Notes: generated by a model from the letters alone, not told the origin. Counted from the first letter of the stretch, positions 14,543 to 34,323 are shown. The stretch: 64,000 nt of DNA from Rhodospirillaceae bacterium (GCA_002746255.1 NVWO01000001.1:230102-294101); one strand, 5' to 3'. Numbers and translations: made by a program.

Positions 14543-14560
14543 GGAATACCCGCTTGGGGG

Positions 14561-14589
14561 CACGAAAGCTCGACTTTCGGCGCTTTTTC
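14561..14589 (+). terminator. possible intrinsic terminator after gatB
   Basis: Hairpin cgaaag-ctcga-ctttcg followed by gcgcttttt. Confidence 0.4.
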
Positions 14590-14602
14590 CCCGTAAAATC
14601 CA

Positions 14603-15787
14603 GTGTTTTTCGTATTTGCAATGTCAGGGGCGACGCCGTTGAAGTTTTCAGGCCTTAAAACGGGACTGCTTTTCCTGCTGCTGATGGCGGTGGCGCTTCC
14701 AGCCAACGCAGAGGATGCGTGGTATCTGCGCCTTCAGGGCGGCGGCAATTTTGCCGGCGATCAGGACATCGACGGCATCCTGGGCACGACCTTTGCGCGC
14801 CAAAGCGAATTTTCCAGCGGCTATGTGGCGGGGGTGGCCCTTGGCCACGGTTTCGGGCCGATCCGTGTGGAGGGCGAATTCCTCTATCGAGAGAACGATG
14901 TTGACGGGCTTGCCGGCGGGCCGGGGATGGTTTCCGGCGATCGCTCCATCCGCAGTTTCACGGCAAACGTCCTCTACGATTTTTATTCTGTCGCCCTTTC
15001 CCCGGATCGGTCAATTGATCTCTACGCGGGCGCGGGGCTTGGCATCGCGAATGTGTCGTTTAACGGGGTTGCCGAAGGGGGTGGCGCGCTTCTGGATACT
15101 GATGACAGTGTCTTTGCCTATCAGGCGATTTTTGGCGTCAGCCACGTCCTTTCAGACCGCCTGTCCATCAATCTCGATTACCGTTACCTGACGACGGTGA
15201 ACCCCGAATTCGTGACAGCGGCGGCGGCGAATGTCGAAACAGAGGTGGCCGATCATTCGGTCCTGTTTGGCCTGACCTGGCATTTCGGCGCGAAGGCGAA
15301 GGCGAAGCGAGCCTTTGCCAAGGCAGCCGAACCGGCGTCTCGTCCGGCTCCATCTGCAACGCGTGCGTCTACGGCACCTGTGGCAGCAGCGGCACCTGTG
15401 GCAGCAGCGGCACCTGTGGCAGCTGTGGCTACGGCACCTGATAAGAAAGCGGTGACGAAGAAGACCTTCCTTGTTTTCTTCGACTGGGATCGGGCCGTCA
15501 TCCGTCAGGACGCGGTGGAAATCCTGACCGAGGCGGCAGCCGTTGCCCGGCACGGGACGCTTGCGATCATTCAACTGACCGGCCATGCTGATCGCTCGGG
15601 CACGCGTCGCTACAATCAGAGCCTTTCCGAACGAAGGGCGGCAGCGGTCCAACGCTTCCTGGTTGGCAAGGGGGTTCCGGCGGACATCATTGCCACCTTT
15701 GGCAAGGGCGAAGACGATCTGCTGGTGGCGACCCCGGACAATGTGCGCGAACCCCGCAACCGCCGGGTCGAGATCGTTCTTCCTTAA
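14603..15787 (+). CDS. OmpA-family outer membrane protein (N-terminal beta-barrel, C-terminal OmpA domain)
   Basis: Signal peptide ending ALPANA-ED. Ala/Pro-rich linker containing three tandem 18-bp repeats (about 15373-15426). C-terminal OmpA motif (LTGHADRSGTRRYNQSLSERRA). The exact start is uncertain. Confidence 0.8.
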   Translation: MFFVFAMSGATPLKFSGLKTGLLFLLLMAVALPANAEDAWYLRLQGGGNFAGDQDIDGILGTTFARQSEFSSGYVAGVALGHGFGPIRVEGEFLYRENDVDGLAGGPGMVSGDRSIRSFTANVLYDFYSVALSPDRSIDLYAGAGLGIANVSFNGVAEGGGALLDTDDSVFAYQAIFGVSHVLSDRLSINLDYRYLTTVNPEFVTAAAANVETEVADHSVLFGLTWHFGAKAKAKRAFAKAAEPASRPAPSATRASTAPVAAAAPVAAAAPVAAVATAPDKKAVTKKTFLVFFDWDRAVIRQDAVEILTEAAAVARHGTLAIIQLTGHADRSGTRRYNQSLSERRAAAVQRFLVGKGVPADIIATFGKGEDDLLVATPDNVREPRNRRVEIVLP

Positions 15788-15817
15788 AAATTATTCAGAG
15801 AAATTATTCGGGCGCGC

Positions 15818-16384
15818 TTATTTGGACGCGTTGAAGGCCTTGTGCCCTTTTTCCCGTGCGGCAAGCCGCGCGGCGAGACGCTGGTCGCGGGGGGTGGGGG
15901 TGTCTCCAGAAAGTTCGGCCAGACTTTTTGTATAGGTGGCGATGGTGAAACTTGCGAGATCGGTTTCTTTAAGGTTGAGGGCCGCTTTTGCCAAGCGGGC
16001 GCGATCCTCGCAATAGGTCGCTTCGCGGATGCTGTTCAGGGAGGCCAGGTTGGCAAGATGCGTCAGGAACGAATCAAAGCGGACGCGGTGCGTGGCACCA
16101 TAGGTTTCGCGGAAATGCCCGCGCAGCGTATTGGCACTATGGATAAGGTTCGGTGAGAACTGGCGGACAAAGTGATTGTAGTCGGCGACCAGGGTTGCGC
16201 GAAGGTCCCCATGGCAGCCCAGCGCCGCGACCATCAGTTCGGATTGGAGCATGCGCACGGACGCCGCCCTGGCGACGTTGCCATCCATACCACCAGCATC
16301 CATGCCGCCAGCATCTTCCGCCAACCCTTCGGCCGCCCATAGAAGGGCTGCCGCCAATGCCAGGCCCGCCACGCCTTTTTTCAT
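15818..16384 (-). CDS. hypothetical secreted protein
   Basis: I chose the start at MKKGVAGLALAAALLWAAEGLA, which is signal-peptide-like. A short DAGGM repeat follows. I do not recognise the family. Confidence 0.45.
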   Translation of the reverse strand: MKKGVAGLALAAALLWAAEGLAEDAGGMDAGGMDGNVARAASVRMLQSELMVAALGCHGDLRATLVADYNHFVRQFSPNLIHSANTLRGHFRETYGATHRVRFDSFLTHLANLASLNSIREATYCEDRARLAKAALNLKETDLASFTIATYTKSLAELSGDTPTPRDQRLAARLAAREKGHKAFNASK

Positions 16385-16613
16385 ACACCGAACTCCCTCG
16401 CGGCAGAAAACACCCGCCGACGCCGGTTTTTTTTCTTCGTCTTCCCTGAGGATTTCATCCTCCCCTTTCGGAAAGGTTAACGGAAATCGGTGGTGAGGCA
16501 AGGCGCTTGCCGAAATGTGGCGAAATCTTTGGCTTTTGTAGGGGTTACTGGCGATGCGCGGCAGACCCTTGGATTGACAGTTCCGGGTGCCATCCGTTAG
16601 AACCGCCCTTTCC

Positions 16614-16703
16614 GGAGGGGTGGCCGAGTGGCTGAAGGCGCTGGTTTGCTAAATCAGTATGCGGGTAACCGTATCGAGGGTTCGAATCCCTCTCCCTCCG
16701 CCA
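16614..16703 (+). tRNA. tRNA-Ser (anticodon GCU)
   Basis: Hand-folded cloverleaf. Acceptor stem GGAGGGG/TCCCTCC, anticodon loop TT-GCT-AA, long variable arm, T-arm GAGGG-TTCGAAT-CCCTC, discriminator G and an encoded CCA. Confidence 0.9.
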
Positions 16704-16994
16704 GCCATAAGTCATTGTTATATAAGTATTTTTCAGGATATAGCGTGGGTTTGAACTTGTCCCGCTACTTCCGGGGCTTACGCCCAATGCACCATTCCGT
16801 CATGAACACCTGAGACTGGTCTGGTGTGGCGAATGAGGCACCGATATCGGATAAGTCTCTTACGCCGGTTTTGGTGGTACGGCCAAATTCGCGTTGGGGT
16901 GTGATTTTGGCCGGATTGCTGCCGATTTCATGGCCGGCTAGTGCGCCGTGTTGGTGGCTAGGGGCGGGGATCCTGAGACAATTTCCGGCGTCCG

Positions 16995-18740
16995 TCAGCC
17001 GATTCCGAGGCGTGTGCGTTGCTCTTCCCAGGCGATGGGTAGACGCACCTCGTTTGCCAGTCGCTTGGCGGTCAACTCGATCGGATGACGGTCGTGGAGG
17101 ATAGCCTTCACGACGTCCGGTGCGAGGAAGCTGAGTCGCAGAATGCGGGTGAAATAGGAGCCGGTGATGCCGACTTCGGCGGCAAGCTCCGCTATCGTCT
17201 TGCCACCCTTGCGCATGAGCATCCCATGATACTGGTGGGCTTGGGCGAGTACCCGGCACAGGCTGCGGTCAGGCTTGCGGCGCACGTTACCGTCATCGCC
17301 GTCGATCAGGAGTCTGGTCTCCATGCCGGTGCGCTTGATCCGGGCCGGGACGGTGAAGGTAATGGTCGGCGCGGCGTTTGTTTCCGGTCGCGTCCAGTCC
17401 TGCGGATCGTTCTGGTCCCCTAGAATCGTGATCAACCGACCGGGCATGATATGGATCTCCAGCGTCTCGCGCAGGAGGTCGATCCGGTCGACAAAGACTG
17501 TGAGGATACGGCGTCTCTCGGACGGTTTCATCTTGGGCCACTGTTCGGCAAGATTCGTGACGCGGGCAACGACGGCGGCACGCTCGCTCACGTCGGCAAC
17601 CATCGCCGCGATCGCATCGAAGACCTTCGTCTCGCTTGCCAGGAACTGTCTGAGACGCCCCTCGACGAGTTCTTCGAGGTCGCCGGCCGGTACCCGTCGG
17701 CCACGTGGTGCGCGACGCCGGTTTCCCCGGACGAGTGCTTTCGAGACATAGTAGCGATACCGCGTTCCCTTCTTGTTGGCATGGCTAGGGGTCATGGGTT
17801 CGCCGGCATCGTCGTAGAGCAACCCGGCAAGGAGACTCGGCTGCGCTGCGTCGACTCCGTTTGCACGGTCGATGCGGTTCGCTGCCAGCTTTTGCTGCAC
17901 CTTATTCAACAGCGCTTCGTCGATGATTGCTTTGTGTTCACCGGGGTAGCTCGTCTCCTTGTGGACGATGCGCCCAAGATAGATAGGGTTTTGCAGCATA
18001 TGATAGAGCGCGCCGCGGGCGAGCGGCTTGCCACCGGTTTGGCGACCGAACCGGTTAGACCGGGCCTTGCTTGCGATGCCGTCCCGGTCGAGTTCTTCCT
18101 TGAGGGCGGGGACCGAACCGAGCGCGACATAGCGCCGGTAGATGGTGCGAACGGTCTCGGCTTCGGCTTCGTTGACGACAAGCTTTCTGTCCTTCACGTC
18201 GTAGCCGAGCGGCGGCAGGCCACCCATCCACATGCCCTTCTTCTTGGAAGCAGCAATCTTGTCGCGGATGCGCTCGCCGGTGACCTCGCGTTCGAACTGG
18301 GCGAAGGAGAGCAGCATGTTGAGGGTGAGCCGGCCCATTGAGGTCGTGGTATTGAAGGCTTGCGTCACAGAGACGAAGGAGACGCCGTGTGTGTCGAATA
18401 CCTCGACGATCTTCGCAAAATCGCTTAAGGATCTTGTCAGCCGATCGACCTTGTAGACGACGACCGTATCGACCTTGCCTGTCTCGATATCGGCAAGCAG
18501 GCGTTTCAGGGCCGGTCGCTCCATGGTAGCGCCCGAGATGCCGCCGTCGTCGTACATCTCGGGCAGACAGGTCCAGCCCTCGTGCTTCTGGCTTGCGATA
18601 TAGGCCTCGCAAGATTCGCGCTGGGCGTCGAGGGAGTTGAACTCCTGTTCCAGCCCCTCCTCATGGGACTTGCGCGTGTAGATCGCGCAGCGGGTCGAAA
18701 CCTTGCCGGCGGTCGTCTTGCGGTTCTTGGTCTTATGCAT
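16995..18740 (-). CDS. large serine recombinase (resolvase/invertase N-domain plus recombinase domain)
   Basis: The catalytic N-terminus reads CAIYTRKSHEEGLEQEFNSLDAQRE...VVVYKVDRLTRS, followed by a long C-terminal recombinase region. I preferred the start at MHKTKNRK (18740). Confidence 0.9.
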   Translation of the reverse strand: MHKTKNRKTTAGKVSTRCAIYTRKSHEEGLEQEFNSLDAQRESCEAYIASQKHEGWTCLPEMYDDGGISGATMERPALKRLLADIETGKVDTVVVYKVDRLTRSLSDFAKIVEVFDTHGVSFVSVTQAFNTTTSMGRLTLNMLLSFAQFEREVTGERIRDKIAASKKKGMWMGGLPPLGYDVKDRKLVVNEAEAETVRTIYRRYVALGSVPALKEELDRDGIASKARSNRFGRQTGGKPLARGALYHMLQNPIYLGRIVHKETSYPGEHKAIIDEALLNKVQQKLAANRIDRANGVDAAQPSLLAGLLYDDAGEPMTPSHANKKGTRYRYYVSKALVRGNRRRAPRGRRVPAGDLEELVEGRLRQFLASETKVFDAIAAMVADVSERAAVVARVTNLAEQWPKMKPSERRRILTVFVDRIDLLRETLEIHIMPGRLITILGDQNDPQDWTRPETNAAPTITFTVPARIKRTGMETRLLIDGDDGNVRRKPDRSLCRVLAQAHQYHGMLMRKGGKTIAELAAEVGITGSYFTRILRLSFLAPDVVKAILHDRHPIELTAKRLANEVRLPIAWEEQRTRLGIG

Positions 18741-19254
18741 CGACCGCCTCCTCGGCCCGCGAACCGATCGGTTGCCTGGCCCTATTGTTGATCCCGAAGA
18801 AGCGCGGTCCCGACCAGTGCCCGCCGGTGATTGCGCGCGCGATCGCCGACAGCGACTGCCAGTGTCGGCCCCTCCATTCAAACCCGTCCTCAGTAACGAT
18901 CACGGTATGAGTCTCACCATGCCACTCGCGTATCAGCTTCGCCCCGGGCTTTAGGCGGGCAACCCGGTTGCGCGTGACGTCGCCGTTCCGTTCCAGGGTC
19001 TTCGCCAGATCGGCGAGACGACGCTTCGTTGTCGCGCCGAGGCCACCAAAGGCCCGCTCCTGGATCTTCCATGCAATCCCGAGCAGGAGCAGGTCGCGTG
19101 CCACCCGCTTCGGCGGGTGGATGCGATAGAGCCGTCGCCATTCCACTCGTAGCGCGTCGTAATCCATCTCTCCGAGCGCTTGAAGTCTGGTCGCCACCTC
19201 CTCTACGGCACTCGCACTACGGCGTTGGAGGGCTTCTTTCCCGGTGCGCAACAT
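18733..19254 (-). CDS. DUF2924-like protein (accessory protein commonly next to serine recombinases)
   Basis: Carries the motif GAKLIREWHGETHTVIVTEDGFEWRGRHWQSLSAIARAITGGHWSGPRFFG. It overlaps the recombinase start. I preferred the start at MLRTGKEA. Confidence 0.6.
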   Translation of the reverse strand: MLRTGKEALQRRSASAVEEVATRLQALGEMDYDALRVEWRRLYRIHPPKRVARDLLLLGIAWKIQERAFGGLGATTKRRLADLAKTLERNGDVTRNRVARLKPGAKLIREWHGETHTVIVTEDGFEWRGRHWQSLSAIARAITGGHWSGPRFFGINNRARQPIGSRAEEAVDA

Positions 19255-19258
19255 CGAC

Positions 19259-19549
19259 TCATGCCTCGGCGGGTGCGATTTTGTAAACCTTTCGCTCATC
19301 CTTGTCGGCTTCAAGGCGGATGGTGAAGCCTCGCGTGCGGAGCCGGCTCAGGGCTCCGTATACGGAGTGCTTCTGCCAACCGGTTGCCTTAATGAGAGCG
19401 TCAATCGTTGCGCCCTTCCTGGTGTCAAGCCGGTCCAGGATTAGGCCGAGCTTTCCACCCGGGCGGGGGTTGGCATCGGTCCTCCGAGAGCGCTTGTCGG
19501 GGCTCTTCTTTGCGTAGCTGCGTGTTTTGCTTGGGGTCCGCTTGGTCAT
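19259..19549 (-). CDS. DUF3489-like small protein
   Basis: Only the C-terminal 96 aa of the 224-aa track ORF look genuine (MTKRTPSK...RKGATIDALIKATGWQKHSVYGALSRLR...KVYKI). Confidence 0.6.
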   Translation of the reverse strand: MTKRTPSKTRSYAKKSPDKRSRRTDANPRPGGKLGLILDRLDTRKGATIDALIKATGWQKHSVYGALSRLRTRGFTIRLEADKDERKVYKIAPAEA

Positions 19550-19644
19550 CGGTGGTCCTCCATCTCGGGCCGCGCCACTCGCGCGGCCTCCCACCAGCCC
19601 AAGCCCCGCCGGCAAGGCCGGCCAGGGCGGGCGGAGAGACGATG

Positions 19645-19898
19645 TCCACCCCTCAAGTTGACGGACAGTACCGCTTCCTTCTACGCAGGAGTCCAGACGA
19701 AAGAAGGCGGGAGGTAGGTCTTTCGGAGAACAGGGGGTATAATCGGTGCCAGGCATCGGGACACAGCCGGTCGGCTGGCTACCCATAAAGTCCCATGCTG
19801 GCTTCGGCGGGCCGACCCCGCCGGGGCTTTTTGAAATGGTATGCGAGCGTGCCGTGACGCGGCCGGGCAAGATCGGATGATCTCTGCGCATGCGGGGA
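19645..19898 (+). repeat. structured noncoding element, copy A (TATAAT box, GC hairpin with T-run, one CRISPR-I-E-repeat-like hairpin)
   Basis: It aligns by eye with 28390-28627. Shared parts are aggtaggtctttcggag, TATAAT (19738-19743), terminator-like CGGCGGG-ccgac-CCCGCCG-gggcttttt (19805-19832) and the hairpin cggatgatCTCTGCgcatGCGGGGa (19874-19898). Confidence 0.6.
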
Positions 19899-19922
19899 AA
19901 ACACGAAGGTAAAAGAGCTAAA

Positions 19923-20203
19923 GGCATTGACACGTTAAGTCGTTAGCTGGCTAGGGCAGGGGTCGGTTCGTCGACGCGAACAAAAACAACAGCACTTTCA
20001 AGTCGCCGGGATCGGCCCAACGGTTTCTGTCGATTCACGCTGCCGTCTACAACCTCTTCTACGTCCAACACCACCTTTTATCTCGACGTATATTCAAGGC
20101 ATTTCAAGCCGAGACTTTCACTGTCTGGAATCAAGGTTGGCTTGCAGCCTAATCCGGGTCACGATCCAATCGTGGCAACCGCGGAAGTTAACGTGTCAAT
20201 GCC
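19923..20203. mobile_element. IS6-family-like internally deleted element (MITE-like, both inverted repeats retained)
   Basis: Terminal inverted repeats ggcattgacacgttaa (19923) and ttaacgtgtcaatgcc (ends 20203). The interior keeps only a transposase C-terminal coding remnant (HAAVYNLFYVQHHLLSRRIFKAFQAETFTVW). Confidence 0.65.
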
Positions 20204-20298
20204 GTGGATTTGTGTAGGTAGAAAATTTCCCTAAATTTTCATTTACAGAAATCATCGAGCATATAGTCTAAACATCTTAAGGATGGGCGGAATAAGCA

Positions 20299-20335
20299 CT
20301 CTCGGGGGGGGGGCTCTTTGCATGTCCCCCGAGAG
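20299..20335 (+). promoter_or_regulatory. perfect 10-bp-stem hairpin containing a G10 tract, upstream of the sbcD-like gene
   Basis: CTCTCGGGGG-(16 nt)-CCCCCGAGAG. The run of ten G spans 20304-20313. It lies about 80 nt before the TTG start at 20414. Confidence 0.5.
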
Positions 20336-20413
20336 ACATCGTTGAAATTACGGCACGACTCAAATTGGCTGAAGGTCTGACGACGAGAAATTAACGAACA
20401 GGGAAGCACGATA

Positions 20414-21688
20414 TTGCCTTCGTTTCGCTTTCTTCATACTGCAGACATTCATCTGGATAGCCCTTTGAAAGGGTTGTCTGGGCATGAGGGTAGTCTGACT
20501 GAGCGTATTCGCGGCGCGACCCGTGAGGCTTTTGACCAACTTGTTGGCCGCGCTATTGAGGAACAGGTCGATTTTTTAATCATCGCAGGCGACCTGTACG
20601 ATGGTGATTGGCGAGACTACAAAACAGGCCTGTTTTTCGTCAACCAAATGGGTCGCCTTAACAAAGCGGGAATTCCGGTGTTTCTGCTTTACGGCAATCA
20701 TGATGCAGAGAGTCAGAACACTCGCCGCCTCGTTTTGCCGGAAAATGTGAAAGTTTTCGGCAGCAGAAAACCTGAGACATTTAAGCTTGATGAGTTGAAC
20801 GTCGTCATCCATGGACAGAGCTTCCGACAGCGAGACATCAGCGAGAATCTCGCTCTGACTTATCCAGACCCGGGCGCGGGTGAATTCAATATTGGTGTTC
20901 TGCATACCGGTCTCGGTGGCATGGGCGGACATGAAAATTACGCCCCCTGCGACCTTAGTGATCTCGTGAACAAGGGTTACGATTATTGGGCGTTGGGTCA
21001 CGTGCATCAGGCTCAGGTGCTACATGAGCGACCGCACATTGTCTTCCCTGGCAACCTTCAGGGACGCCACGTTCGCGAGACCGGCAGCAAAGGAGCATGC
21101 CTGGTTTCGGTGGAAGATGGGGAGATCAATGATCTTACTACTCTCCACAGCGATGTGGTGCGATGGTCTGTGGTGCCGGTTGAACTGGAAGACGTCGCCA
21201 GTGTGGGCGAAGCTTTCGATCGGATCCGGGATGCGCTTGAAAATGCTGTGACCAATTTTGGCGAGGGACGCTTGTTGGTATGCCGGGTGCAGCTGCATGG
21301 TCACACAGAATTCCACGAACAGCTTTTGGCCACTGGGGATCATGTTCTCGCCGAGGCGCGCTCCAGTGCCTTGGGGCTGGGCGAAGACATAGCGTGGGTG
21401 GAGAAGGTCGTAATTGAGACGGAACCGTTGATCGATTTGCAAATCAGGGCTGATCGTGAAGACGCTATTGGCGATTTACAGCGTATGCTTCGAGAGGCCG
21501 GTGCTGATGCAAACCTTATAGAGCAACTCGACAGGGATATCGGCGAGATAGTTCGACGGTTGCCTCATGAAGTGCGCGCCGATGTTGAAGATGTTGCGCT
21601 AAGGGCGGCAATTGAGGGCGATCACGCCGGGCTGATCGCAGACGTTACGCCCTACCTATCAGCTCGTCTAACAATGAAGGAGGGCTGA
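20414..21688 (+). CDS. SbcD/Mre11-family metallophosphoesterase (YhaO-like DNA exonuclease subunit)
   Basis: The N-terminus FRFLHTADIHLDSP and the motifs IIAGDLYD, GNHD and GHVH match calcineurin-like nuclease motifs. TTG start preceded by an AGGGAAG Shine-Dalgarno-like sequence. Confidence 0.8.
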   Translation: MPSFRFLHTADIHLDSPLKGLSGHEGSLTERIRGATREAFDQLVGRAIEEQVDFLIIAGDLYDGDWRDYKTGLFFVNQMGRLNKAGIPVFLLYGNHDAESQNTRRLVLPENVKVFGSRKPETFKLDELNVVIHGQSFRQRDISENLALTYPDPGAGEFNIGVLHTGLGGMGGHENYAPCDLSDLVNKGYDYWALGHVHQAQVLHERPHIVFPGNLQGRHVRETGSKGACLVSVEDGEINDLTTLHSDVVRWSVVPVELEDVASVGEAFDRIRDALENAVTNFGEGRLLVCRVQLHGHTEFHEQLLATGDHVLAEARSSALGLGEDIAWVEKVVIETEPLIDLQIRADREDAIGDLQRMLREAGADANLIEQLDRDIGEIVRRLPHEVRADVEDVALRAAIEGDHAGLIADVTPYLSARLTMKEG

Positions 21689-21690
21689 GC

Positions 21691-24600
21691 GTGCGGCTGC
21701 GACGCCTTGATCTTCTTCGTTATGGGCACTTCACGAAAAAAGTTGTTGAGCTGCCTACCGATGAGACCGATTTTCATATTATTTTCGGCCCCAATGAAGC
21801 TGGCAAATCCACGGCACTCGCCGCGATTGAGGACTTGCTGTTCGGTATTCCGATGCACTCGCCCTATAATTTTTTGCATGATTATTCGGACATGCGCATT
21901 GGCGCTGTTCTTGAGAGTGAGAGGTCATCACTCGAGGTCTTCCGACGAAAAGGAACGAAATGTACCCTTCTAGGTCCAGACGACCTGCCATTAGCTGGTG
22001 GTGAGGGGGCGTTAAGATCATTTTTGGTTGACGCGGATCGATCTTTTTTTGAACGCATGTTTAGTCTCGATCACGTGCGTCTCGAAGAAGGTGGCCGTGA
22101 AATTTTGGAGGCGAATGACGAAATTGGCCAGATGCTCTTTTCCGCAGGAGCCGGCGTAGCGGGCCTGCGGGATCGACTCTTGGACTTGTCGAAGGAAGCT
22201 GACGATCTGTGGGGAGCGAGAAGAGCCTCGCGCCGGCTTTTTACCCAGGCAGAAGATAAGCTCAAGGAGGCCGACAAAGAACTGCGGGAGCACACATTCA
22301 CGGCGAACAAATGGCAGGGACTAAAGCGCGCTTACGAAACGGCTGATGAGGCCTACATTGAGGTTGAGGGGAATTTTGAGAAGGTATCCGCCGAAGGGAA
22401 ACGCCTTAGTCGCATTCGTAGGATATATCGCTACGTCCGCATAAAGACCGAACTGGATGGACAGCTCGACGCCCTTGGAGAGGTTGTCTTGCTTCCAGAG
22501 GAAGCCGGTCAGGTTCTCGAAAGCGCGGAGCGCAATGAAACGAAAGCTTCTGCAGCGATCGACACTCTCCTCGGTCAACTGGAGCAGGTAACTCAGGATC
22601 TGAAAGCTCTTACCTTTGACAAAATGCTTGTGCTGCGGGCGGATGATATGCGCGAGCTTCATGAGCGCCGAATCGAAATTCGTCGCGAAAAGGCTGATCT
22701 GCCAAAACGCCAATCCGAACTCGATGTTGCAGATTCCGAATTGCGAGCTTTGGCGAAAGAACTAGGCTGGTTGGAGGATGATGTCGATACGTTGATTTCC
22801 CGCATTCCGGCGCGGGCTAAGGTCGGTGTCGTACGTTCATTGCTTGAGCAACGCGGTGAGTTGGCTGCAAGCGTAACGAAAAGCACTCAAGCGTTGGATG
22901 AGGCTCAAGCCGATTTAATCAAACTCCGCGATCGCCTTGGCGAAATGGGTGAGGTGATCGACGTCTCCAGATTGGCGGCGGTCGTAAAGACGGTGCGTGA
23001 GAGCGGCGACATTGCCGGTCGAGTTGCGCTTGCGGAGCAACAGGCCACTGAGGCACAGGAGCGTGTTGATCGTTTGCTTGCTTCAATGAATCCGGTGCTT
23101 CCTAATGAAAATGACGCGGCAGAGATAAAAGTGCCGCCACGTGCGGGGGTTCAAAAGCACCGCGATAAGGTTCAGGATTGGGATCGGCACTTCCGAGAGG
23201 CGCACCAAAAGACTGAAGCAGTTGAGCGCGAAGCGGACCGCGCAGGAAAGGCTTTCGAGCGCACTGTTCGCAACGAACGCGCCTTTACTAGTAATGAACT
23301 GGAGGATGCGCGACGCCATCGCGACGTGCTCTGGAATTTGGTGAAGCTCAAGCACATCGAAAATGTCCCTATCTCAGATGAGGAACATGCGGCCTACGCC
23401 GATGAGCTTGAAAACTTACCTGCAGCCTTTGAACCTGCGATGCGATTGGTTGATGAAATCACTAACCAGCGATTTGATAATGCCGAGGCGGTCGGACGGT
23501 TGGTGGAAATGTCCCGCATTATTGACGAGCAGAAAGAACTGCTCGACCAGCAACTGAAACAGGAACTGGCGCTCACAAAAGAGGAAGAGCAGCTAAAGTC
23601 CGACTGGCAAGCCATGTGGAAAACCGCGCCGTTCGAACCCTTGGAGTCTGACGCCATGTTGGATTGGTTAGATGCACGCAGCGAACTACTGAAAGCGGTT
23701 GAACAGCGCGCTGACGTGAACGGCGGATTGAAAATCCAACGCAAGGAAGAGCATGAATCGAAAGAGAGGCTTTTGACGGAACTGGCAGCCCTTGATGTCG
23801 ATCGCGTCCCTCTGGAGGACGACATCCTTCGGGTAGTTTTGGAACGAGCAACTAACGTGCAGCGCGAGCAAGAAACTGCGGCCCAGGGCGAGGCTCAGTT
23901 GGAAGAAAGTGTGCAGGATGCGGAAGATGAGGCGGAGCGATGTGAGCGCGATCACGACCGTGCTGAAAAGGCATGGGCAGAGTGGCAGGGACAGTGGTCC
24001 ATGGCCCTGAGGGAACTTGGTTTAGCTGCCGATTTGCTTTCAGACGCGGTCGGCGCACAGATTGAAGTAATAGATCAAATGCGCGACTGGGCGGGTAAGG
24101 TCACTCAACTGCGTCATGATCGCATCGATAAAATAGTTCGGGACGTCGCCGATTTCGAGAGTGTGGTCGCTGAGATTGTCCAGCAAGTGGCTAAGGACTT
24201 ACTAGGTAAACCAGCAGATGAGGCCGTAGTCAAAATTGAAATGCGATTGGCAGAGGCTCAACGTGTTCAGGAGCTTCATAAAAGCAAGTCGGAAGAGGTG
24301 GACGGTCTCGAAAATCAGATTACGGCTATGAAAGAAAGCCGGCATGAGGCAATGGAGTCCTTGATCCCTTTCAAGGAAGCTGCAGGTGTGGATGACGCGA
24401 AGGCGCTCAAGGCGGCAATTGAAAGTTCTGATGCGCTGCGCCAACTGCAAGGCAAGGTGGCTGAAAACCTGCAAACAATGGAGCAAGAAGGAGATGGGCT
24501 GGCGGTTGATGAGTTGGAGAAGGAATGCGATGAAATCGACTTGGACCACGTCGCCGCGCGTGAAGAATCTATTGCCACTGAATTGGATGCATTGCGGCAG

Positions 24601-25212
24601 CAGCTGACCACTGCTGTTGAAGTCAGATCGCTGGCTAGAGAAGCGTTTCAGGCAATTAGGGGCGATGATTCTGCAGCACTAGCCGCCGCAACTCGGCAGG
24701 AAGCCATTGCAGAAATGCGAGAGGTGGCCACTCGTTATGTGCGCGTGCGAACTTCGGCGATATTGCTGCAATGGGCTATTGATCGCTATCGGCGAGAGAA
24801 GCAGGCACCTCTCCTCAAACGTGCTGGAGAACTTTTCGTAACGATAACGAGAGGGTCGTTCAGTGATTTACGTGTCGCCTACGACGATCAGGATCAGGCA
24901 CATTTAACTGGACTGAGGGCCGATGGAGAGGTTGTACGAGTGCCGGGTATGAGCACCGGAACTGCGGATCAGCTATATCTGGCACTTCGTCTGGCGTCGA
25001 TCGGAGATTATCTGGAACGCGCCGATGCATTACCTTTCGTTGCCGATGATCTATTTATCAACTTCGACGACGATCGTTCCGCTGCGGGTTTTGAGGTGCT
25101 CGGCAAACTAGCGCAGAAGACGCAGGTGCTGTTCTTCACCCACCACCAGCATTTAGTGGATATTGCTCGCAGCACCTTGGGAACGTCTGTCCATGTGGTG
25201 ACGTTGGCATAG
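21691..25212 (+). CDS. SbcC/Rad50-like (YhaN-type) ABC ATPase with a very long coiled-coil insert
   Basis: Walker A GPNEAGKST at the N-terminus. Signature-like MSTGTADQLYLALRLA, Walker B PFVADDLFINFDD and FTHH at the C-terminus. About 900 aa of charged helical sequence lie between them, with no CxxC hook. GTG start 3 nt after the sbcD-like stop. Confidence 0.8.
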   Translation: MRLRRLDLLRYGHFTKKVVELPTDETDFHIIFGPNEAGKSTALAAIEDLLFGIPMHSPYNFLHDYSDMRIGAVLESERSSLEVFRRKGTKCTLLGPDDLPLAGGEGALRSFLVDADRSFFERMFSLDHVRLEEGGREILEANDEIGQMLFSAGAGVAGLRDRLLDLSKEADDLWGARRASRRLFTQAEDKLKEADKELREHTFTANKWQGLKRAYETADEAYIEVEGNFEKVSAEGKRLSRIRRIYRYVRIKTELDGQLDALGEVVLLPEEAGQVLESAERNETKASAAIDTLLGQLEQVTQDLKALTFDKMLVLRADDMRELHERRIEIRREKADLPKRQSELDVADSELRALAKELGWLEDDVDTLISRIPARAKVGVVRSLLEQRGELAASVTKSTQALDEAQADLIKLRDRLGEMGEVIDVSRLAAVVKTVRESGDIAGRVALAEQQATEAQERVDRLLASMNPVLPNENDAAEIKVPPRAGVQKHRDKVQDWDRHFREAHQKTEAVEREADRAGKAFERTVRNERAFTSNELEDARRHRDVLWNLVKLKHIENVPISDEEHAAYADELENLPAAFEPAMRLVDEITNQRFDNAEAVGRLVEMSRIIDEQKELLDQQLKQELALTKEEEQLKSDWQAMWKTAPFEPLESDAMLDWLDARSELLKAVEQRADVNGGLKIQRKEEHESKERLLTELAALDVDRVPLEDDILRVVLERATNVQREQETAAQGEAQLEESVQDAEDEAERCERDHDRAEKAWAEWQGQWSMALRELGLAADLLSDAVGAQIEVIDQMRDWAGKVTQLRHDRIDKIVRDVADFESVVAEIVQQVAKDLLGKPADEAVVKIEMRLAEAQRVQELHKSKSEEVDGLENQITAMKESRHEAMESLIPFKEAAGVDDAKALKAAIESSDALRQLQGKVAENLQTMEQEGDGLAVDELEKECDEIDLDHVAAREESIATELDALRQQLTTAVEVRSLAREAFQAIRGDDSAALAAATRQEAIAEMREVATRYVRVRTSAILLQWAIDRYRREKQAPLLKRAGELFVTITRGSFSDLRVAYDDQDQAHLTGLRADGEVVRVPGMSTGTADQLYLALRLASIGDYLERADALPFVADDLFINFDDDRSAAGFEVLGKLAQKTQVLFFTHHQHLVDIARSTLGTSVHVVTLA

Positions 25213-25301
25213 AAGCCTACGACGACTAAAAGCCTCTGTTTTTCATGTCTGAATCAGATGCAAACCGCATCAAATAGTTTGGTCACTTGGAAAATGCGGG
25301 T

Positions 25302-27602
25302 TTAGGTTTCTAGTCCCGAAAGCTGTCCAGGTGCGAACTTCTTAACTACTAAAATGGCTTCCTTCGATGCCAAAAGAATATCTTCTTCTATGTGGGGCGC
25401 ATCGCTAAATTTTCCTCCATGGCAGAGGTCTTGTATGAGGACACTTTTTATTTCGATCTCATGTTCGTCATTGAGAAACTTCACGAATTCCCCAAAATTA
25501 TTTTTATCAGGACAACAGAACTTCCACATACCCTCAATTACGGAGCGAATTGAATTCGCAGTAGTGTGATTTGGTTCCACCGCTTTCTCGCTGACGTCAT
25601 AGACGTCTTTCAGTTGAAGCATGTGGGGAGTTGCAAAGGCTTTTTGGCTTCGCAGAAAATGCTCAGCCGAGCCAGAGACCAACTGATATAGGGCACCCGC
25701 TTTCACTATATTGTTGGTCGAAGCGACGTTATAAAAGTGATTGTTGTGCGTGAGAATTAGCATCTTCGGCTTGTGAGGATTACTCTTTAGGTTGAATTCT
25801 ATCTCTCCATCGTCCCCTATCCGAAGTAGCTTGAGGCACGTGATGATCGTGTACACGTAGTCGAAAGACATTGACGTGACAGGATCGTCAAATACGAAAT
25901 AGATTTTCTTGTAATCGTCGTTAGACTCCACGCGTAGATGGGTCTGCGCGATGAAATAGCAAAACGCCATTGCTGATTTTTCACCATCGCTCAGAGTACG
26001 ATCGCCGCCGCGAAGCATTTCTTTGTTGTTGCGACGGACCTTGAAGTTAGACTTATCGAAGGAGTATTTATCCTGAAAGAAGCGGCGCAGAAGCATCGAA
26101 AAAGTATCGGCTACACGCTCTCTTGCCGAGGCTTTTTCACCGTAGTTATTCGTTAAGGCTGTCAGATTCATCTGGAGTTTGGGTATTTCGGCAGATAATT
26201 TGCGGAGTGCTTCTATTTCCACCGAATTGTCTGTCGCGAATTTTTGTGTGAGCGCTTCGCATGCCGAAGATTGAAGAGATCGCCGTTCTTCGCCGGAATT
26301 GCTTGCTAGGGATGCCAGTTTGGCAAAATGTTTGTTGTTTTCTTCGCAGCGATTTTTGACTGACGTCGCGATCGCAAGATAGTCAGCATTGGGCATATTC
26401 AATGGCCGGTCGAGCTGATCAGTCTTGTCTTGCAGCGTCTTATTAAGGGCGACGAGAAAGGCGCCCAGGCTGTCCAAACTGTCATCAACATCAACCAGTT
26501 GTACGTTACTCATTGTAGAAAAATATGCTTTCAGAGAATCGAAACGAGCGTTGCTCTTGAGAATTGCTTCTCTCTCGTTTGCGATCAACTTCTGTTGCTC
26601 TTGAACATGTTTCAACTGCCCGTCAATACGCTTCCTATGCTGGGCCTCTTCGTCTTCAAAGTACGCCTTATAGGCGTCGATAGCGGTTGCAGCTAAAGCT
26701 CCAATTTCTTGAGTGCAGAACGGACAGTTGTTTTGATCGGCGTTAAGCATCTTTAGCCCTGACTCGAAAAAGGCTTCATCAGATACGATTTTAGTCTTGA
26801 AGGTATCTGCGACAGTGGAGAGGTTGGTTATGTTTGCCAACTCCCCGTTAATCGTTTCGGAGTTGACCGAGAAATCAAAATTTACGGCGACCGGTAAATC
26901 GGGGTCTGATGGCAAAGATTTGAATTTGTTGTATTGGGTGAGAAGGACTTCGACTGACTCAGCACTTCCATCAGCGGTATAGGGCGAGTCCAGAAAATAG
27001 CAGCCCGCATTGAGAGCCTTATAAGTTCCCAAAGAACCCGTAATATTGAAATCCTGTTTTAGTTTCAGTTGCGCTGCTTTGAATGAGGTGAAAATTTCCT
27101 CCTTGCCTCTCGAAAGAGTAGATTGCTTGTCCTCTATCTTTTTCTGGAGGACATCAAGATCGGCATTTTCCTTTCCGATGATGATTTCATGAGTAATTTT
27201 GCCATCAAGCTCCTCCAACTTGTTGCGCAATTCTTCGTCAATGTAATCTTCTGAGAAAACGTGAAAAATATACGCGGGTGTTGAGCGCGTGACAGTGCTT
27301 GTACTCTTGAATAGTTCCATGCCTCCAATCTTAGTTGTGTCTTCAAACAGATTGAAAATTCCGGTTCCCGAAACGGACTCTTCTGAAACCAGAAGATTTG
27401 GCACCTCACTGTCTTTAACCTTGGTGTTTGCCGCACCATCAAGGTGCCTCAGGGCCCTTGCAAGGAAGGATTTCCCAAACCCATTGCGCGCGAAGATGAG
27501 GTTTTGTTTTTCAGACGAAAGAAACTGATCAAGCTTCATGATCGGCCCAATATGCTGGGCTACAATCCTCAAACGGGGCTTTGATTGCGGAGGGGTGTTC
27601 AT
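25302..27602 (-). CDS. RloC-like ABC ATPase with zinc-hook coiled coil (AAA_13 / PrrC-RloC family), candidate anticodon nuclease
   Basis: Walker A ARNGFGKS, coiled-coil insert with CPFC, signature LSDGEKS and Walker B IYFVFDDPVTSMS. The C-terminal region carries R-x3-E (SIRSVIEG) followed by His residues. The gene is visibly AT-rich. Confidence 0.65.
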   Translation of the reverse strand: MNTPPQSKPRLRIVAQHIGPIMKLDQFLSSEKQNLIFARNGFGKSFLARALRHLDGAANTKVKDSEVPNLLVSEESVSGTGIFNLFEDTTKIGGMELFKSTSTVTRSTPAYIFHVFSEDYIDEELRNKLEELDGKITHEIIIGKENADLDVLQKKIEDKQSTLSRGKEEIFTSFKAAQLKLKQDFNITGSLGTYKALNAGCYFLDSPYTADGSAESVEVLLTQYNKFKSLPSDPDLPVAVNFDFSVNSETINGELANITNLSTVADTFKTKIVSDEAFFESGLKMLNADQNNCPFCTQEIGALAATAIDAYKAYFEDEEAQHRKRIDGQLKHVQEQQKLIANEREAILKSNARFDSLKAYFSTMSNVQLVDVDDSLDSLGAFLVALNKTLQDKTDQLDRPLNMPNADYLAIATSVKNRCEENNKHFAKLASLASNSGEERRSLQSSACEALTQKFATDNSVEIEALRKLSAEIPKLQMNLTALTNNYGEKASARERVADTFSMLLRRFFQDKYSFDKSNFKVRRNNKEMLRGGDRTLSDGEKSAMAFCYFIAQTHLRVESNDDYKKIYFVFDDPVTSMSFDYVYTIITCLKLLRIGDDGEIEFNLKSNPHKPKMLILTHNNHFYNVASTNNIVKAGALYQLVSGSAEHFLRSQKAFATPHMLQLKDVYDVSEKAVEPNHTTANSIRSVIEGMWKFCCPDKNNFGEFVKFLNDEHEIEIKSVLIQDLCHGGKFSDAPHIEEDILLASKEAILVVKKFAPGQLSGLET

Positions 27603-27918
27603 AACGGTGCGCTCTGTCTCCCGGAATTCTAGAATTTATCAGATCACGATGCAGGGAGAGCCCAGCATTGAGACCTTGAATTTCAATTCACTAAAGTCCG
27701 AACCGTCAATCACTGTAAAGTTGGCTATGACTGGTTTTGATCCTCTTGAGACGTTTGCCGAGCGCCAATCGATGATCGCATTGGGCTGATACCTATATAA
27801 CTAAGAGAGCGTATACTATTATTAATAAAAACCAATGACGAGTTACGTTGAAATACTCAGTTTTCAGTCTACGGCTGAATAAATAACGTAGCATTCCAAA
27901 TCATCATCCAGGTGTCGG

Positions 27919-27934
27919 GGCATTGACACGTTAA
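27919..27934 (+). mobile_element. solo IS6-family-like terminal inverted repeat
   Basis: ggcattgacacgttaa is identical to the repeat at 19923 and in the same orientation. No transposase follows it. Confidence 0.6.
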
Positions 27935-28025
27935 GTAATTGGCAATCGCACGGGCGATTCCTAGTGTGGGAACATTCGCACCGGTTTGAGCCACACAAAA
28001 GCTATAGTGCTAGTGGTTTCCAGAA

Positions 28026-28298
28026 TTGACGGCGAAGGAATGCGCGATGGAAAAGACAGATCAAGAAAGAGTTGTAGAAATGGGCGGGCCGACGCTTCTT
28101 GAAGCGCATCAGGTGGCTGTCACCTATGACGAAGAAAATGGCTACCAGATTCTTCTGCCTAGCACCGACGAACACGATGAAATGCCGGAGGGAGCGGCAA
28201 TTCTTGTTGCAACCGCCATGCGTTTGACTAGTGACGAGGCTCTTTATCAAGAGATGGTGGCGTGGCTAGACGCGCGCCAGGATGATTTGCGGAATTGA
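28026..28298 (+). CDS. small acidic hypothetical protein
   Basis: 90-aa ORF rich in Asp/Glu (possible start MEKTDQ at 28047). I do not recognise a family. Coding status is uncertain. Confidence 0.35.
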   Translation: MTAKECAMEKTDQERVVEMGGPTLLEAHQVAVTYDEENGYQILLPSTDEHDEMPEGAAILVATAMRLTSDEALYQEMVAWLDARQDDLRN

Positions 28299-28348
28299 TC
28301 AGGGCGTGGCGACTGCTCAACCGTCAAGATGCCCTTTTCGAGCTTTAA

Positions 28349-28627
28349 CGGTTGATCTCTGCGCATGTGGGGAACGGATTGTTTAACGTTGCACCCTCCA
28401 AGACAGATAATGGCTGCTTGTGAACTGTGTTTTTGGAAGGTAGGTCTTTCGGAGTACAAGAGGTATAATCGGCGCCAGGCATCGGGACACAGTCGGTCGG
28501 CGGCCTTCCATAAAGTCCCGGTGTTGGCTTCGACGGGCCGACCCCGCCGGGGCTTTTTTGCGACAATATATGAGCGTGCCGTGATACTTGCCAGGCAAGA
28601 TCGGTTGATCCCTGCGCATGCGGGGTC
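28349..28627 (+). repeat. structured noncoding element, copy B, flanked by two CRISPR-I-E-repeat-like hairpins
   Basis: Hairpin repeats lie at 28349-28375 (cggttgatCTCTGCgcatGTGGGGaac) and 28602-28627 (cggttgatCCCTGCgcatGCGGGGtc). The interior is homologous to copy A, including TATAAT (28464-28469) and a terminator-like hairpin with T-run (28531-28559). Confidence 0.6.
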
Positions 28628-29762
28628 TCAATAAGGCCAATTTACGTTCTTAAACCGTTGCAAAAGTTTCGTCGCGTAGTCAGGCTCAATCATCTTTGCG
28701 AAATCAATCAGTCCGCGCAGGTGGGCTTTCATACCCCATATCGTATCAAACTCCCGAGCCTTCGCATGTTCAGTCGGACCGAATTTTTCCAGATAGTGAA
28801 TATGAAGGCGGAGATTGTCTTTGAACTCCCTTCGCAGACTTGGCTTAGGGCCACCCACATTCAGGCCAAGTACGATTTTTCTGCTCCCCGGAGGGATCAG
28901 TTTTGTCTTTCTATGCTGGGTCCGAAAGCCCGCCGATGACAAAATTTCCTCAATGGTATGAATAAAGGACGATGCAGTGGACCGACCGAAATTCTTCTCC
29001 GGTGTCGAGAAGGTCAGGTCATCGCTATAGCGCGTATACGTCAGTCCTGCTTCTCTGGCAGCATCGGAAATCCGCGTATCAATTGGCGTCATGATGAGAT
29101 TTGAGAGCATGGGGCTCGTAGGAGCCCCTTGAGGCAAATAACCCAGTACACCCGTCGAATAGGCAGGAATTTTCTCATTTCTGCGCCTGACCTTCCAAAC
29201 CGGATCACTATGGCGCGGGCTTCGATCCACTGGACCGATCGTTACTATCCGAGCAAGTTCGAATGACACCAGCGGTTGGTAACCCAGTGCTCTGAAAACA
29301 CGAAACACCTGGATCTCCGATATTGATTCGAAGAAGCTGGTGACATCCATTTTAATGAGTCATTGCGCCCCGCAATGCCTGCTCGCACATGAAAAAATGG
29401 ATCCGCCGGGTGCAAACGCAAAGCTGCAACTGTGAACGGGAACATATCTGGAGGATATACTTATTAAGCCATTTCTGAACGTGGCTCAAAGAAGGCGATG
29501 GCACATGAATGAAACGCCTTCCGCCTGACCGTTTTCGGATCGAAAATTTCCGGTATGTATCGATCTTGGAACGCTGAACGACGCTGCGCAGAAATTGGTA
29601 GGGCACCTTTGCGCGGGTAGCCAAGTGGTTGAGCGAGAGAATGGCTGGTAACTTCGGTTCACCCGACTCGACGGCTTCGATCTGCTCAATAGCGGTTGCA
29701 ATCGTGTCGTCGCCTAAGCCCTTCTTCTTCGCCTCTGCCCTATATTGATGAGGGGACCACAC
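28628..29762 (-). pseudogene. retron-type reverse transcriptase, disrupted by one frameshift and one in-frame TGA
   Basis: RT motifs are split over three frames. The first piece reads RKFSIRKRSGGRRFIHVPSP...HVQKWLNKYILQ. A frameshift near 29445 leads to YVPVHSCSFAFAPGGSIFSCASRHCGAQ, which ends at TGA 29360-29362. The last piece reads LIKMDVTSFFESI...LPQGAPTSPMLSNL...YTRYSDDLTFS...VLGLNV. From memory it aligns colinearly with the Ec86 RT. Confidence 0.75.
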
Positions 29763-29942
29763 GTAGACTACTCCGGTGGTGCCGGCACGGCGACTGCGCG
29801 CGCTGGCGACCCGAGGCCCACGATGGAAGGAGGCAGCGTGCGCAATCTCCAGTCATGCGTAGGCTTTCCCAAAGGGCAATGGAACTCCACGCCCCAACAG
29901 CCGTCAATATGGCGACTGCGGCAACATTGTTGCCTGCTTACA

Positions 29943-30212
29943 CTAGCCACGTGCGGCCCTCCTCAACTGTTGGGGAAAGTAATATTCGTCGCCCCTTGCA
30001 AGGACGCCCCCGTAAACTTTCCCCTGATCTTTCGCGGCTGCAAGCTCGGTACGTCCGAGAACTGTCAAACGAATCGATTGTGTTAAAAACCCCCACTTAA
30101 TGCATCGATTGATGATCTCAGTACAGCTTTCGCGGTTCAGCCCTGTTGCAAAGCTCAGGGCGCTTTGTTTTCTCTGTCCCTTGGCAATGAGGGCGAGAAT
30201 AAGAAGGATCAC
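29943..30212 (-). CDS. small winged-helix-like DNA-binding protein
   Basis: 89-aa ORF with an HTH-like pattern (LSFATGLNRESCTEIINRCIKWGFL). It sits between the PRTase-like gene and the RT. Confidence 0.5.
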   Translation of the reverse strand: MILLILALIAKGQRKQSALSFATGLNRESCTEIINRCIKWGFLTQSIRLTVLGRTELAAAKDQGKVYGGVLARGDEYYFPQQLRRAARG

Positions 30213-30235
30213 CTAACCTGTCTCGCCGCGTTGGC

Positions 30236-31182: not shown

Positions 31183-31195
<13 letters not shown>
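30236..31195 (-). CDS. phosphoribosyltransferase-like (PRTase-fold) protein
   Basis: Has a PRPP-loop-like motif, [15 protein letters not shown]. Its start overlaps the hsdR stop, either at GTG 31195 or as a GTGA overlap at 31186. Confidence 0.55.

Positions 31196-34323
<3,128 letters not shown>

Follow-up and report, generated by a model that had tools for sequence, protein, structure and literature searches.

The DNA analysed here, a stretch of 64,000 nucleotides (nt) from a Rhodospirillaceae bacterium (GCA_002746255.1, NVWO01000001.1:230102-294101; hereafter the window), carried two adjacent genes encoding a nuclease of the Mre11/SbcD type and a large ATPase of the YhaN type. An original prediction made from the sequence alone had described these genes as an SbcD/SbcC-like pair carried by a mobile defence island, and both open reading frames (ORFs) were found exactly where it had placed them, with the lengths and the 2-nt gap that it had claimed. 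The genes formed a mobile, hook-less pair of the YhaO/YhaN type, and we considered it an even chance that their products acted as an accessory nuclease against invading linear or structured DNA; a housekeeping role in DNA repair appeared less likely. The genes and the segment that contained them were as follows.

20414..21688, + strand: nuclease gene, Mre11/SbcD-type (YhaO/SbcF-like), 424 amino acids (aa), TTG start
21691..25212, + strand: ATPase gene, YhaN/SbcE-type, SMC-like (structural maintenance of chromosomes) ATP-binding cassette (ABC) ATPase, 1173 aa, GTG start
20361..25208, + strand: transferable two-gene cassette of 4.85 kb; nucleotide homology with loci L079 and L080 (82% nt identity) ends exactly at these positions

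Only 2 nt separated the stop codon of the nuclease gene from the ATPase gene. The N-terminus of the nuclease corresponded to the consensus of its homologues (MxSFRFLH...), that of the ATPase corresponded to the consensus MRLRRLDLLRYGHF, and the homologues agreed in length as well (424 aa for the nuclease and 1173-1190 aa for the ATPase). Thus, the start assignments were sound and neither gene was truncated. The ratio of nonsynonymous to synonymous substitution rates (dN/dS) of the two genes was 0.13-0.26 against relatives of 94% and 80% identity, and 0.18-0.26 against the 94% relative (locus L081) alone. Such low values indicated that the cassette was kept by purifying selection. The cassette began 53 nt before the start codon of the nuclease and reached the end of the ATPase gene, and the genes that flanked it in L079 and L080 were different. 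In L081, co-linearity with the window ran from position 20361 through a neighbouring AAA_13 gene at 93.7% nt identity.

The first protein of the pair was a calcineurin-like phosphoesterase (Pfam Metallophos, E 4e-16). Its metal-ligand motifs aligned to those of P. furiosus Mre11, and the following positions were invariant in an alignment of 24 sequences.

20444..20458, + strand: nuclease motif I, D11-I-H13-L-D15
20588-20593, + strand: nuclease GD motif, G59-D60
20693-20704, + strand: nuclease GNHD motif, G94-N95-H96-D97
20903-20905, + strand: nuclease H164
20996-21007, + strand: nuclease GHVH motif, G195-H196-V-H198

The best PDB sequence matches of the nuclease were P. furiosus Mre11 (1ii7) and bacterial SbcD (7dog and 4lty), with both halves of the active site covered. 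Its AlphaFold2 (AF2) model, with a predicted local distance difference test score (pLDDT) of 78, combined a phosphoesterase core with a capping domain rich in beta strands and with helices at the C-terminus. According to Foldseek, the top 50 PDB structures for this model were all Mre11/SbcD (E 1e-14 to 1e-10, template modelling scores 0.45-0.65). Thus, Pfam family, invariant motifs and predicted fold all agreed with the Mre11/SbcD-type phosphoesterase that had been predicted. On the other hand, the protein fell below the NCBIfam cut-offs for SbcD (59.8 against 77.65 bits for TIGR00619 and 43.5 against 450 bits for PRK10966), and its only match among the PADLOC models was a partial one of 24 bits to a generic 'Effector endonuclease' model. 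The nuclease therefore had the Mre11/SbcD fold, yet was no orthologue of the housekeeping SbcD. By analogy, it was predicted to be Mn-dependent.

The second protein matched Pfam AAA_27 (PF13514) with its residues 1-208 over the complete profile (positions 1-206 of 206; E 2.3e-73; 246.6 bits against a cut-off of 22). SMC_N (below its cut-off), AAA_29 and AAA_23 matched weakly, and none of the NCBIfam families matched. The following elements were recognised in the ATPase, the three sets of head motifs being invariant in 24 sequences.

21787..21813, + strand: Walker A / P-loop GPNEAGKST, residues 33-41
24949..25050, + strand: signature-like MSTGTADQ (residues 1087-1094) and Walker B FVADD (residues 1116-1120)
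25138-25146, + strand: H-loop THH, residues 1150-1152
23431..23490, + strand: conserved mid-protein segment, residues 581-600, EPAMRLVDEITNQRFDNAEA, a conservation peak at the midpoint of the helical region

The ABC head was split as in SbcC/Rad50, with Walker A in the N-terminal half and the signature, Walker B and H-loop in the C-terminal half, and about 850 helical residues separated the two halves (helices 182-1036 in the AF2 model). Walker B ended in DD rather than DE. A CxxC zinc hook was found neither in the window ATPase nor in 23 homologues, so that the motifs, the long arm and the missing CxxC were all as originally described. Conservation in residues 581-600 reached 0.83 compared with 0.5-0.7 around them, and F580, E581, R594, F595, D596, A598 and E599 were invariant; the other conservation peaks were in the heads and at residues 321-340. 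We infer that residues 581-600 are a candidate apex or dimerisation element that replaces the zinc hook. No solved structure of any relative of the ATPase was found in the PDB search. JGI (Joint Genome Institute) and PGAP (the Prokaryotic Genome Annotation Pipeline) labelled its relatives 'YhaN' or 'YhaN family protein', and PGAP named the nuclease partner of these relatives 'DNA repair exonuclease'. Among phage genomes, there was no full-length homologue of the ATPase and only weak matches to the C-terminal head were obtained. For this reason, a phage module of the gp46/47 type was rejected.

It has previously been reported that SbcE (YhaN) of B. subtilis was SbcC-like, lacked CxxC and had a unique conserved central domain (Krishnamurthy et al., PMC2811018). 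Its gene was described as lying between the SbcD-like yhaO upstream and the exonuclease gene yhaM downstream, the protein interacted with YhaO in a yeast two-hybrid assay, and SbcE was reported in all Gram-positive genomes analysed (PMC2811018). The window pair shared with SbcF/SbcE (YhaO/YhaN) the AAA_27 head, the SbcD-like gene immediately upstream, the long heptad or helical arms, the absence of CxxC and, as judged by description, the conserved centre. The pair thus belonged to the YhaO/YhaN (SbcF/SbcE) family, as the original prediction had assigned it, the Bacillus protein being compared by its description and its Pfam family. There were also differences. Namely, the clade of the window protein was Gram-negative or environmental, its length was tight (about 1173 aa, range 1150-1190 aa), and it was patchy, mobile and located in defence islands, in contrast to SbcE with its presence in all analysed Gram-positives. 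This clade did not have a gene of the yhaM type; the closest relatives had a non-homologous ExoI-like exonuclease and the window had neither.

In comparison with SbcCD/Mre11-Rad50, the nuclease had the same fold, capping domain, C-terminal helices and metal-ligand motifs, and the pair had the same split ABC head, long helical arm, order of nuclease before ATPase and translational coupling. It differed in the missing zinc hook, in the DD of Walker B, in the nuclease scoring under the SbcD cut-offs and in being neither core nor syntenic. The parallel to Wadjet and Lamassu that had been drawn earlier held for the general logic and failed for membership in either system. With Lamassu, the pair shared the combination of an SMC/Rad50-like ATPase with an effector and the defence-island setting. 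However, the ATPase gave just marginal, partial matches to LmuB (E 4e-5, 20 bits, in the coiled-coil region; and E 8e-4), no match to LmuA or LmuC was found in the pair or its neighbours, and the nuclease was of the Mre11 type rather than a Lamassu effector. The presumed mode of action also differs, being abortive infection for Lamassu and, as proposed for the window pair, direct cutting of foreign DNA. With Wadjet, it shared an SMC-family ATPase combined with a nuclease and a plausible anti-plasmid role, but it consisted of two genes without a hinge-type SMC, kleisin/KITE subunits or a Toprim nuclease, and none of the 9 scanned proteins matched JetA, JetB, JetC or JetD. Canonical SbcCD, Lamassu and Wadjet were therefore rejected as identities of the pair by the component, orthology and zinc-hook tests. 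The match of the ATPase to the PADLOC model mad3 was marginal. Neither protein had a significant full-length match to a catalogued defence model (PADLOC-DB v2.0.0 and the antiphage models of NCBIfam r20), in line with the original prediction, to which the pairing was not known as a named defence system.

The family proved to be large. We found more than 1700 ATPase homologues of conserved length, and in a profile search of 1.84 billion representatives, 18,175 clusters passed E ≤ 1e-3, whilst the stricter E ≤ 1e-30 left 5,900 clusters (at 50% identity). The best 150 members were nearly all co-linear over about 1150-1190 aa. For 78 genomic loci from many phyla, taken with 10-kb flanks, ORFs were called and then clustered. 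Just two ORF clusters were common to these loci, namely the ATPase in 73 of them and the nuclease in 66; the next most frequent one came from 6 closely related Acidobacteriota loci. In 66 of the 73 loci, both genes shared a strand and the nuclease gene came first, with gaps mostly of -4 to +3 nt.

Judged from the sequences, the identities among the ATPases contradicted taxonomy. Namely, a Rhodobacterales copy was 72% identical to one from Terriglobia and 63% identical to one from Rhodothermaceae. Three Rhodospirillales copies were only about 41% identical among themselves, and two Bradyrhizobium copies 47%. The window host was a Rhodospirillales-like alphaproteobacterium by its GatB, and the best genome match for its ATPase was from Nitrospirales (60%). 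Relatives at 27-41% identity were found on 213 plasmids of PLSDB, and one Bradyrhizobium plasmid copy of the pair was fragmented. The guanine-cytosine (GC) content was 0.535 for the nuclease gene and 0.533 for the ATPase gene compared with 0.589 for the core, which agreed with the lower GC claimed for the pair, and GC at third codon positions (GC3) was 0.54 and 0.53 compared with 0.66 in gatA/gatB. The mapped edges of the cassette, the lack of synteny in the 78 loci and the incongruent phylogeny together confirmed the horizontal acquisition that had been proposed. Homologues that were core and syntenic, which would have spoken against the prediction, were not seen, since only the two genes themselves were kept across the loci.

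Genes of defence type recurred beside the homologues. The neighbours in L079 included Dnd/Ssp-like genes, an SNF2 helicase, an integrase and an OLD-family gene. In L089, there was a block of SNF2, DUF1016, DUF1156 and DUF499 genes together with another AAA_13 gene, and in L091 an AAA_13 and a PIN gene, inserted after purSQ. A Methylomonas plasmid had BREX-1 with Shedu on one side of the pair and an ATPase-helicase pair on the other, and a Sphingobium plasmid had IS6100, MmeI, a UvrD-helicase gene and AbiEii. Additionally, Gabija neighboured the homologue in Oceanicaulis HTCC2633, and a helicase-restriction endonuclease gene (AAA_11/12 with MTES_1575) the one in Pacificimonas flava.

The enrichment check that the original prediction had suggested was carried out with PADLOC on the two nearest genes to the left and to the right of the pair, a strong match being one at E ≤ 1e-100 and the control being genes 7-10 kb away. 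At least 16 of 130 near genes had strong matches compared with about 5 of 132 control genes (about 3.5-fold, Fisher p=0.012), in a crude test that used the family counts of the best 25 matches, took its control from inside the same islands and could be counted for the first set alone. The families among these first 130 neighbours were type I and III restriction-modification (R-M), SngC, PDC-S01, PDC-S06, PDC-S37, PDC-S46, HmaA/B, BilD and TRIP13, and further NucC, GajB, Hhe and BrxHI. In the second set (134 neighbours), the matches listed included GajA twice, SIR2 twice and PDC-S06 twice. PADLOC found two GajA and two to three GajB among the neighbours of the pair. Gabija/OLD-family genes stood directly beside it in L039 (4953-8316), L082 (12646-16115), L079 (13591-15519) and L083 (14659-16431), which were unrelated loci; the types were GajA-like AAA_15/21 with TOPRIM and a GajB-like UvrD helicase. 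This recurrent adjacency may be more than co-residence in the same islands. In the literature search, no paper was found that linked YhaN to phage defence, and a review of SMC proteins in immunity did not mention YhaN. In a 2026 preprint, the core SbcD was identified as hindering the conjugation of plasmids, which makes a role against foreign DNA plausible for an SbcCD-like machine.

Several observations weighed against an immune role of the pair, beginning with the crudeness of the enrichment test. Some homologues stood beside core or metabolic genes (cobST, purSQ, PEPCK, Nramp and TrkH), others beside genes of repair or plasmid type (an AddAB-like pair of PDDEXK and UvrD, and plasmid rep genes). 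The PDB sequence search with the ATPase profile returned no significant match, the best being Rad50 at E 0.05 and 1.3. The AF2 model of the full ATPase, built from 24 sequences, had a predicted template modelling score (pTM) of 0.30 and heads with pLDDT below 50; the head model was too poor and was left out of the fold search. Furthermore, in the only characterised relative, B. subtilis SbcE/SbcF, mutants were sensitive to double-strand breaks and mildly defective in transformation (PMC2811018).

This phenotype is the first argument for the main rival explanation, in which the pair would be an accessory SbcEF-like module of double-strand break repair or recombination without any immune role, hitch-hiking in defence islands. 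Islands and plasmids would then carry it because the host or the element survives DNA damage better with it, such damage also including the cuts of restriction systems encoded nearby. In favour of such a module, one homologue directly followed the AddAB-like PDDEXK_1 and UvrD pair, an umuD gene lay near the pair on one plasmid, and the PGAP name of the partner pointed to repair. Moreover, the ExoI-like 3'-5' exonuclease gene just upstream of the pair in the two closest relatives (L079 and L081) paralleled yhaM beside yhaON in Bacillus. However, such repair genes are usually core and syntenic, whereas the distribution of the pair was extremely patchy, its phylogeny was at odds with taxonomy and no synteny was conserved. 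Bona fide defence genes also recurred as neighbours, more so near the pair than 7-10 kb off. We regarded a purely repair-related function as less likely than an immune one, yet far from negligible.

The upstream region added to the points against an active defence gene. In L079 (7184-8590) and L081 (2-1399), the ExoI-like gene (RNase_T and ExoI_C, 465-468 aa, 88% identical between the two) sat 134 nt upstream of the nuclease gene. It was missing from the window, where a remnant of an IS6-family insertion sequence (IS) occupied its place. The IS event thus removed everything more than 53 nt upstream of the pair, the ExoI-like gene included. A scan of 19900-20460 for a sigma-70-like promoter found none, although a consensus scan is weak evidence in an alphaproteobacterium. 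Since only 53 nt of native upstream sequence were left and no promoter was found, expression in the window genome was uncertain. A terminator scan around the pair also found nothing. It followed from these facts that the pair could be a silent passenger in this genome, intact yet unexpressed or non-functional after the IS6 rearrangement had severed its upstream region and partner gene; the decay of the island seen in a nearby frameshifted retron gene and the fragmented Bradyrhizobium copy would fit such a state. On the other hand, both ORFs were of full length with intact motifs, and the dN/dS against the 94% relative was low. Read-through or an outward promoter borne by the IS is possible, and the ExoI-like gene was absent from the 78 other loci, hence no required partner had been lost. 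Silence of the pair was improbable in our view, and the ExoI-like gene was rejected as a general third component on the same absence.

Immediately downstream, in convergent orientation, was a gene resembling RloC.

25302..27602, - strand: AAA_13/PDC-S06 RloC/PrrC-like ATPase, 766 aa, convergent neighbour; PADLOC PDC-S06 E 5e-136, PrrC E 2.5e-13; Pfam AAA_13

The part of this protein that resembled PrrC was C-terminal. A CPFC (CxxC) motif was located at 26715-26726 (- strand), inside the ATPase insert, and CPFC was also present in a 23%-identical AAA_13 protein flanking the pair in L089. The Rad50-like hook motif thus belonged to the AAA_13 neighbour and not to the YhaN-type ATPase. The neighbour resembled the RloC/PrrC anticodon nucleases in its AAA_13 ATPase, the CxxC in the insert and the PrrC-like C-terminal region. 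It differed in being catalogued just as the candidate system PDC-S06, and its anticodon nuclease activity was putative. When the window PDC-S06 protein was compared with the 78 loci, no homologue was detected at the BLAST level.

The position of this gene suggested another explanation, a three-gene system in which the pair would make or process ends of foreign DNA, and the AAA_13 protein, as the partner with a zinc hook, would sense them and trigger an abortive response directed at tRNA. Pair and AAA_13 gene lay within the same IS-bracketed segment and remained co-linear in L081 (93.7% nt identity). Additionally, AAA_13 genes flanked the 61%-identical pairs of L089 and L091, PDC-S06 models matched at least 4 further neighbours in 70 genomic loci, and the AAA_13 protein had the conserved CPFC and the PrrC-like C-terminal part. 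However, about 90% of the loci had no AAA_13 neighbour, and the 80% relative L079 had an OLD-family gene in its position. Its orientation also varied, being convergent in the window and L089 and co-directional in L091, the AAA_13 proteins were only about 23% identical and matched different PDC-S06 models, and PDC-S06 was catalogued as a single-gene candidate. Such a three-gene system seemed very unlikely.

The remaining features of the segment were as follows.

16614..16703, + strand: tRNA-Ser(GCT) (ARAGORN, Rfam tRNA), left island boundary and probable integration site
16995..18881, - strand: large serine recombinase, candidate island integrase (Pfam Resolvase, Recombinase, Zn_ribbon_recom; NCBIfam Ccr/XisF-like)
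19923..20203, no strand assigned: 281-bp internally deleted IS6-family remnant with both terminal inverted repeats (16/16) and a C-terminal transposase fragment
27919..27943, + strand: solo IS6-type terminal repeat; the pair and the AAA_13 gene lie between it and 20188-20203
28628-29762, - strand: type III-A retron reverse transcriptase (RT), PADLOC RT_III-A, frameshifted
30236-31195, - strand: retron PRTase, PADLOC PRTase_III-A; its start (31195) overlaps the hsdR stop region (31183)
31183-34323, - strand: hsdR of a type I R-M system (PADLOC REase_I, Pfam)
34332-35093, - strand: DUF1828/DUF1829 gene between hsdR and hsdS, with a homologous cluster member in one other fetched locus
36122-37423, - strand: hsdS of the type I R-M system (Pfam)
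37416-39008, - strand: hsdM of the type I R-M system (Pfam)

The core genes upstream of the island were rnr, topA, dprA, a pyrC-like gene, pyrB, gatCAB and ompA. Within the island, GC fell to 0.45-0.54. A DUF3489 gene stood beside the serine recombinase, before the IS6 remnant, and another methyltransferase was found beyond the retron and the type I R-M system. With a tRNA at its border, an adjacent recombinase, atypical composition and accessory cargo, the segment was a tRNA-associated genomic island. A repeat of the 3' end of tRNA-Ser, sought to define the right border, was not found. A 70-nt direct repeat (80% identical) at 42623-42692 and 43614-43683 flanked a HAD-hydrolase gene (42748-43422); lying near the return of GC to core values, it could be the right island edge or a small separate insertion. 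When 14-36 kb were compared with plasmids by megablast, the recombinase region alone matched, at 73%, and a plasmid origin was not indicated. In the seawater metagenome run X2, the core flank 14000-16650 was covered by a diverged variant (about 3% differences) at a depth of 35-45, and the island 16676-33900 by identical contigs alone at a depth of about 23. This coverage suggests that co-occurring relatives may lack the island. The metagenome contigs, in which the island was identical in two samples, yielded no clean junction of an empty site.

A 16-nt repeat, GGCATTGACACGTTAA, occurred at 19923 (+), 20188 (-), 27919 (+) and 50535 (+), with a chance expectation of 0.04. The transposase fragment of the remnant read ...SAQRFLSIHAAVYNLFYVQHHLLSRR..., and the remnant weakly matched, at the DNA level, an annotated IS6 family transposase on a Skermanella plasmid. 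No transposase coding sequence followed the solo repeat at 27919. An IS6-bounded composite transposon was rejected since its left side was a 281-bp remnant and its right side a solo repeat, without an intact transposase. The predicted setting in a defence island, between IS6-type ends and beside an RloC-like gene, was therefore real, with the refinement that the IS copies around the pair were fossils. Between the remnant and the start of the cassette homology were 157 nt, in which a perfect 10-bp inverted repeat (CTCTCGGGGG ... CCCCCGAGAG, 20299-20335) with a 17-nt loop and no T-run after it was situated about 80 nt upstream of the nuclease start. The fourth exact IS6-type repeat, at 50535-50550, was followed about 0.8 kb on by an ORF fragment (51321-51572) similar to the C-terminus of IS6 transposase and containing ...FAAVHASINNHFNHDHHLNRRDIF...; this was more IS6 debris, well outside the island core.

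The whole IS-bracketed segment was also flanked by a direct repeat of about 190 nt (19705-19897 and 28432-28625, 85-92% identical), and a third copy of its last 36 nt was present at 28337-28372. The left copy adjoined the IS6 remnant and overlapped the DUF3489 ORF at its 5' end, and the copy on the right started 3 nt past the stop codon of the retron RT. The repeat held GACCCCGCCGGGGCTTTTT and the motif GATCGGTTGATCyCTGCGCATGyGGGG. Nothing supported a structured RNA, as Rfam gave no match and the z-scores for folding were -0.1 and -0.4. The retron RT was broken into two ORFs that differed in frame (29352-29762 and 28628-29350); about 30 positions of the model were absent at the break, and the gene was likely a frameshifted pseudogene or the result of a sequencing error. 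No retron msr/msd RNA was identified.

Taken as an accessory nuclease against invading DNA, the pair may work as follows. By analogy with Mre11-Rad50/SbcCD, the ATPase would dimerise through its heads on binding ATP, and perhaps also through the conserved mid-arm element, and the dimer would clamp DNA ends, hairpins or blocked ends. ATP turnover would then license the bound dimer of the Mre11-like nuclease, positioned by the ATPase, to cut. The DD of Walker B suggests slow ATP turnover, and the ATPase may thus act as a switch rather than as a motor. Self and non-self would be distinguished by DNA topology, as free or structured ends should be rare on a circular chromosome and frequent on phage genomes after injection, on rolling-circle intermediates and on single-stranded DNA (ssDNA) that arrives by conjugation. 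The targets would probably be phage genome ends or replication intermediates and hairpins of incoming plasmid ssDNA. In the window, the pair had been captured together with the RloC-like AAA_13 gene between IS6-type ends, inside a defence island defined by tRNA-Ser and the serine recombinase.

On the basis of its associations, a role of the pair against foreign DNA is plausible, and it is a good candidate for a new immune nuclease. In a wider version, which we put forward tentatively and with less than even confidence, the pair would be a widespread, unnamed system against phages and plasmids, a hook-less immune nuclease resembling Mre11-Rad50 that recognises ends or structures and destroys foreign DNA directly. 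Such a system would be spreading across phyla as a 4.85-kb cassette, and its partners in certain lineages may include an adjacent RloC-like AAA_13 protein that senses DNA ends, or a 3'-5' exonuclease. The family itself is already known; to read this clade as a mobile immune nuclease associated with defence islands is possibly new.

With 5,900 clusters at E ≤ 1e-30, this is a large family to which a function has been assigned in Bacillus alone. With an apex element in place of the zinc hook, it would also be of structural interest as a variant of the Rad50 machine. Should the pair turn out to be no more than a mobile module for repair, it would exemplify repair genes travelling with defence islands, perhaps offsetting self-damage, and would call for caution in predictions based on guilt by association. 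If it is an immune nuclease, it would represent a third SMC-family branch of bacterial immunity, beside Wadjet and Lamassu, and it would correspond directly, in bacteria, to the antiviral function that has been attributed to the eukaryotic Mre11-Rad50.

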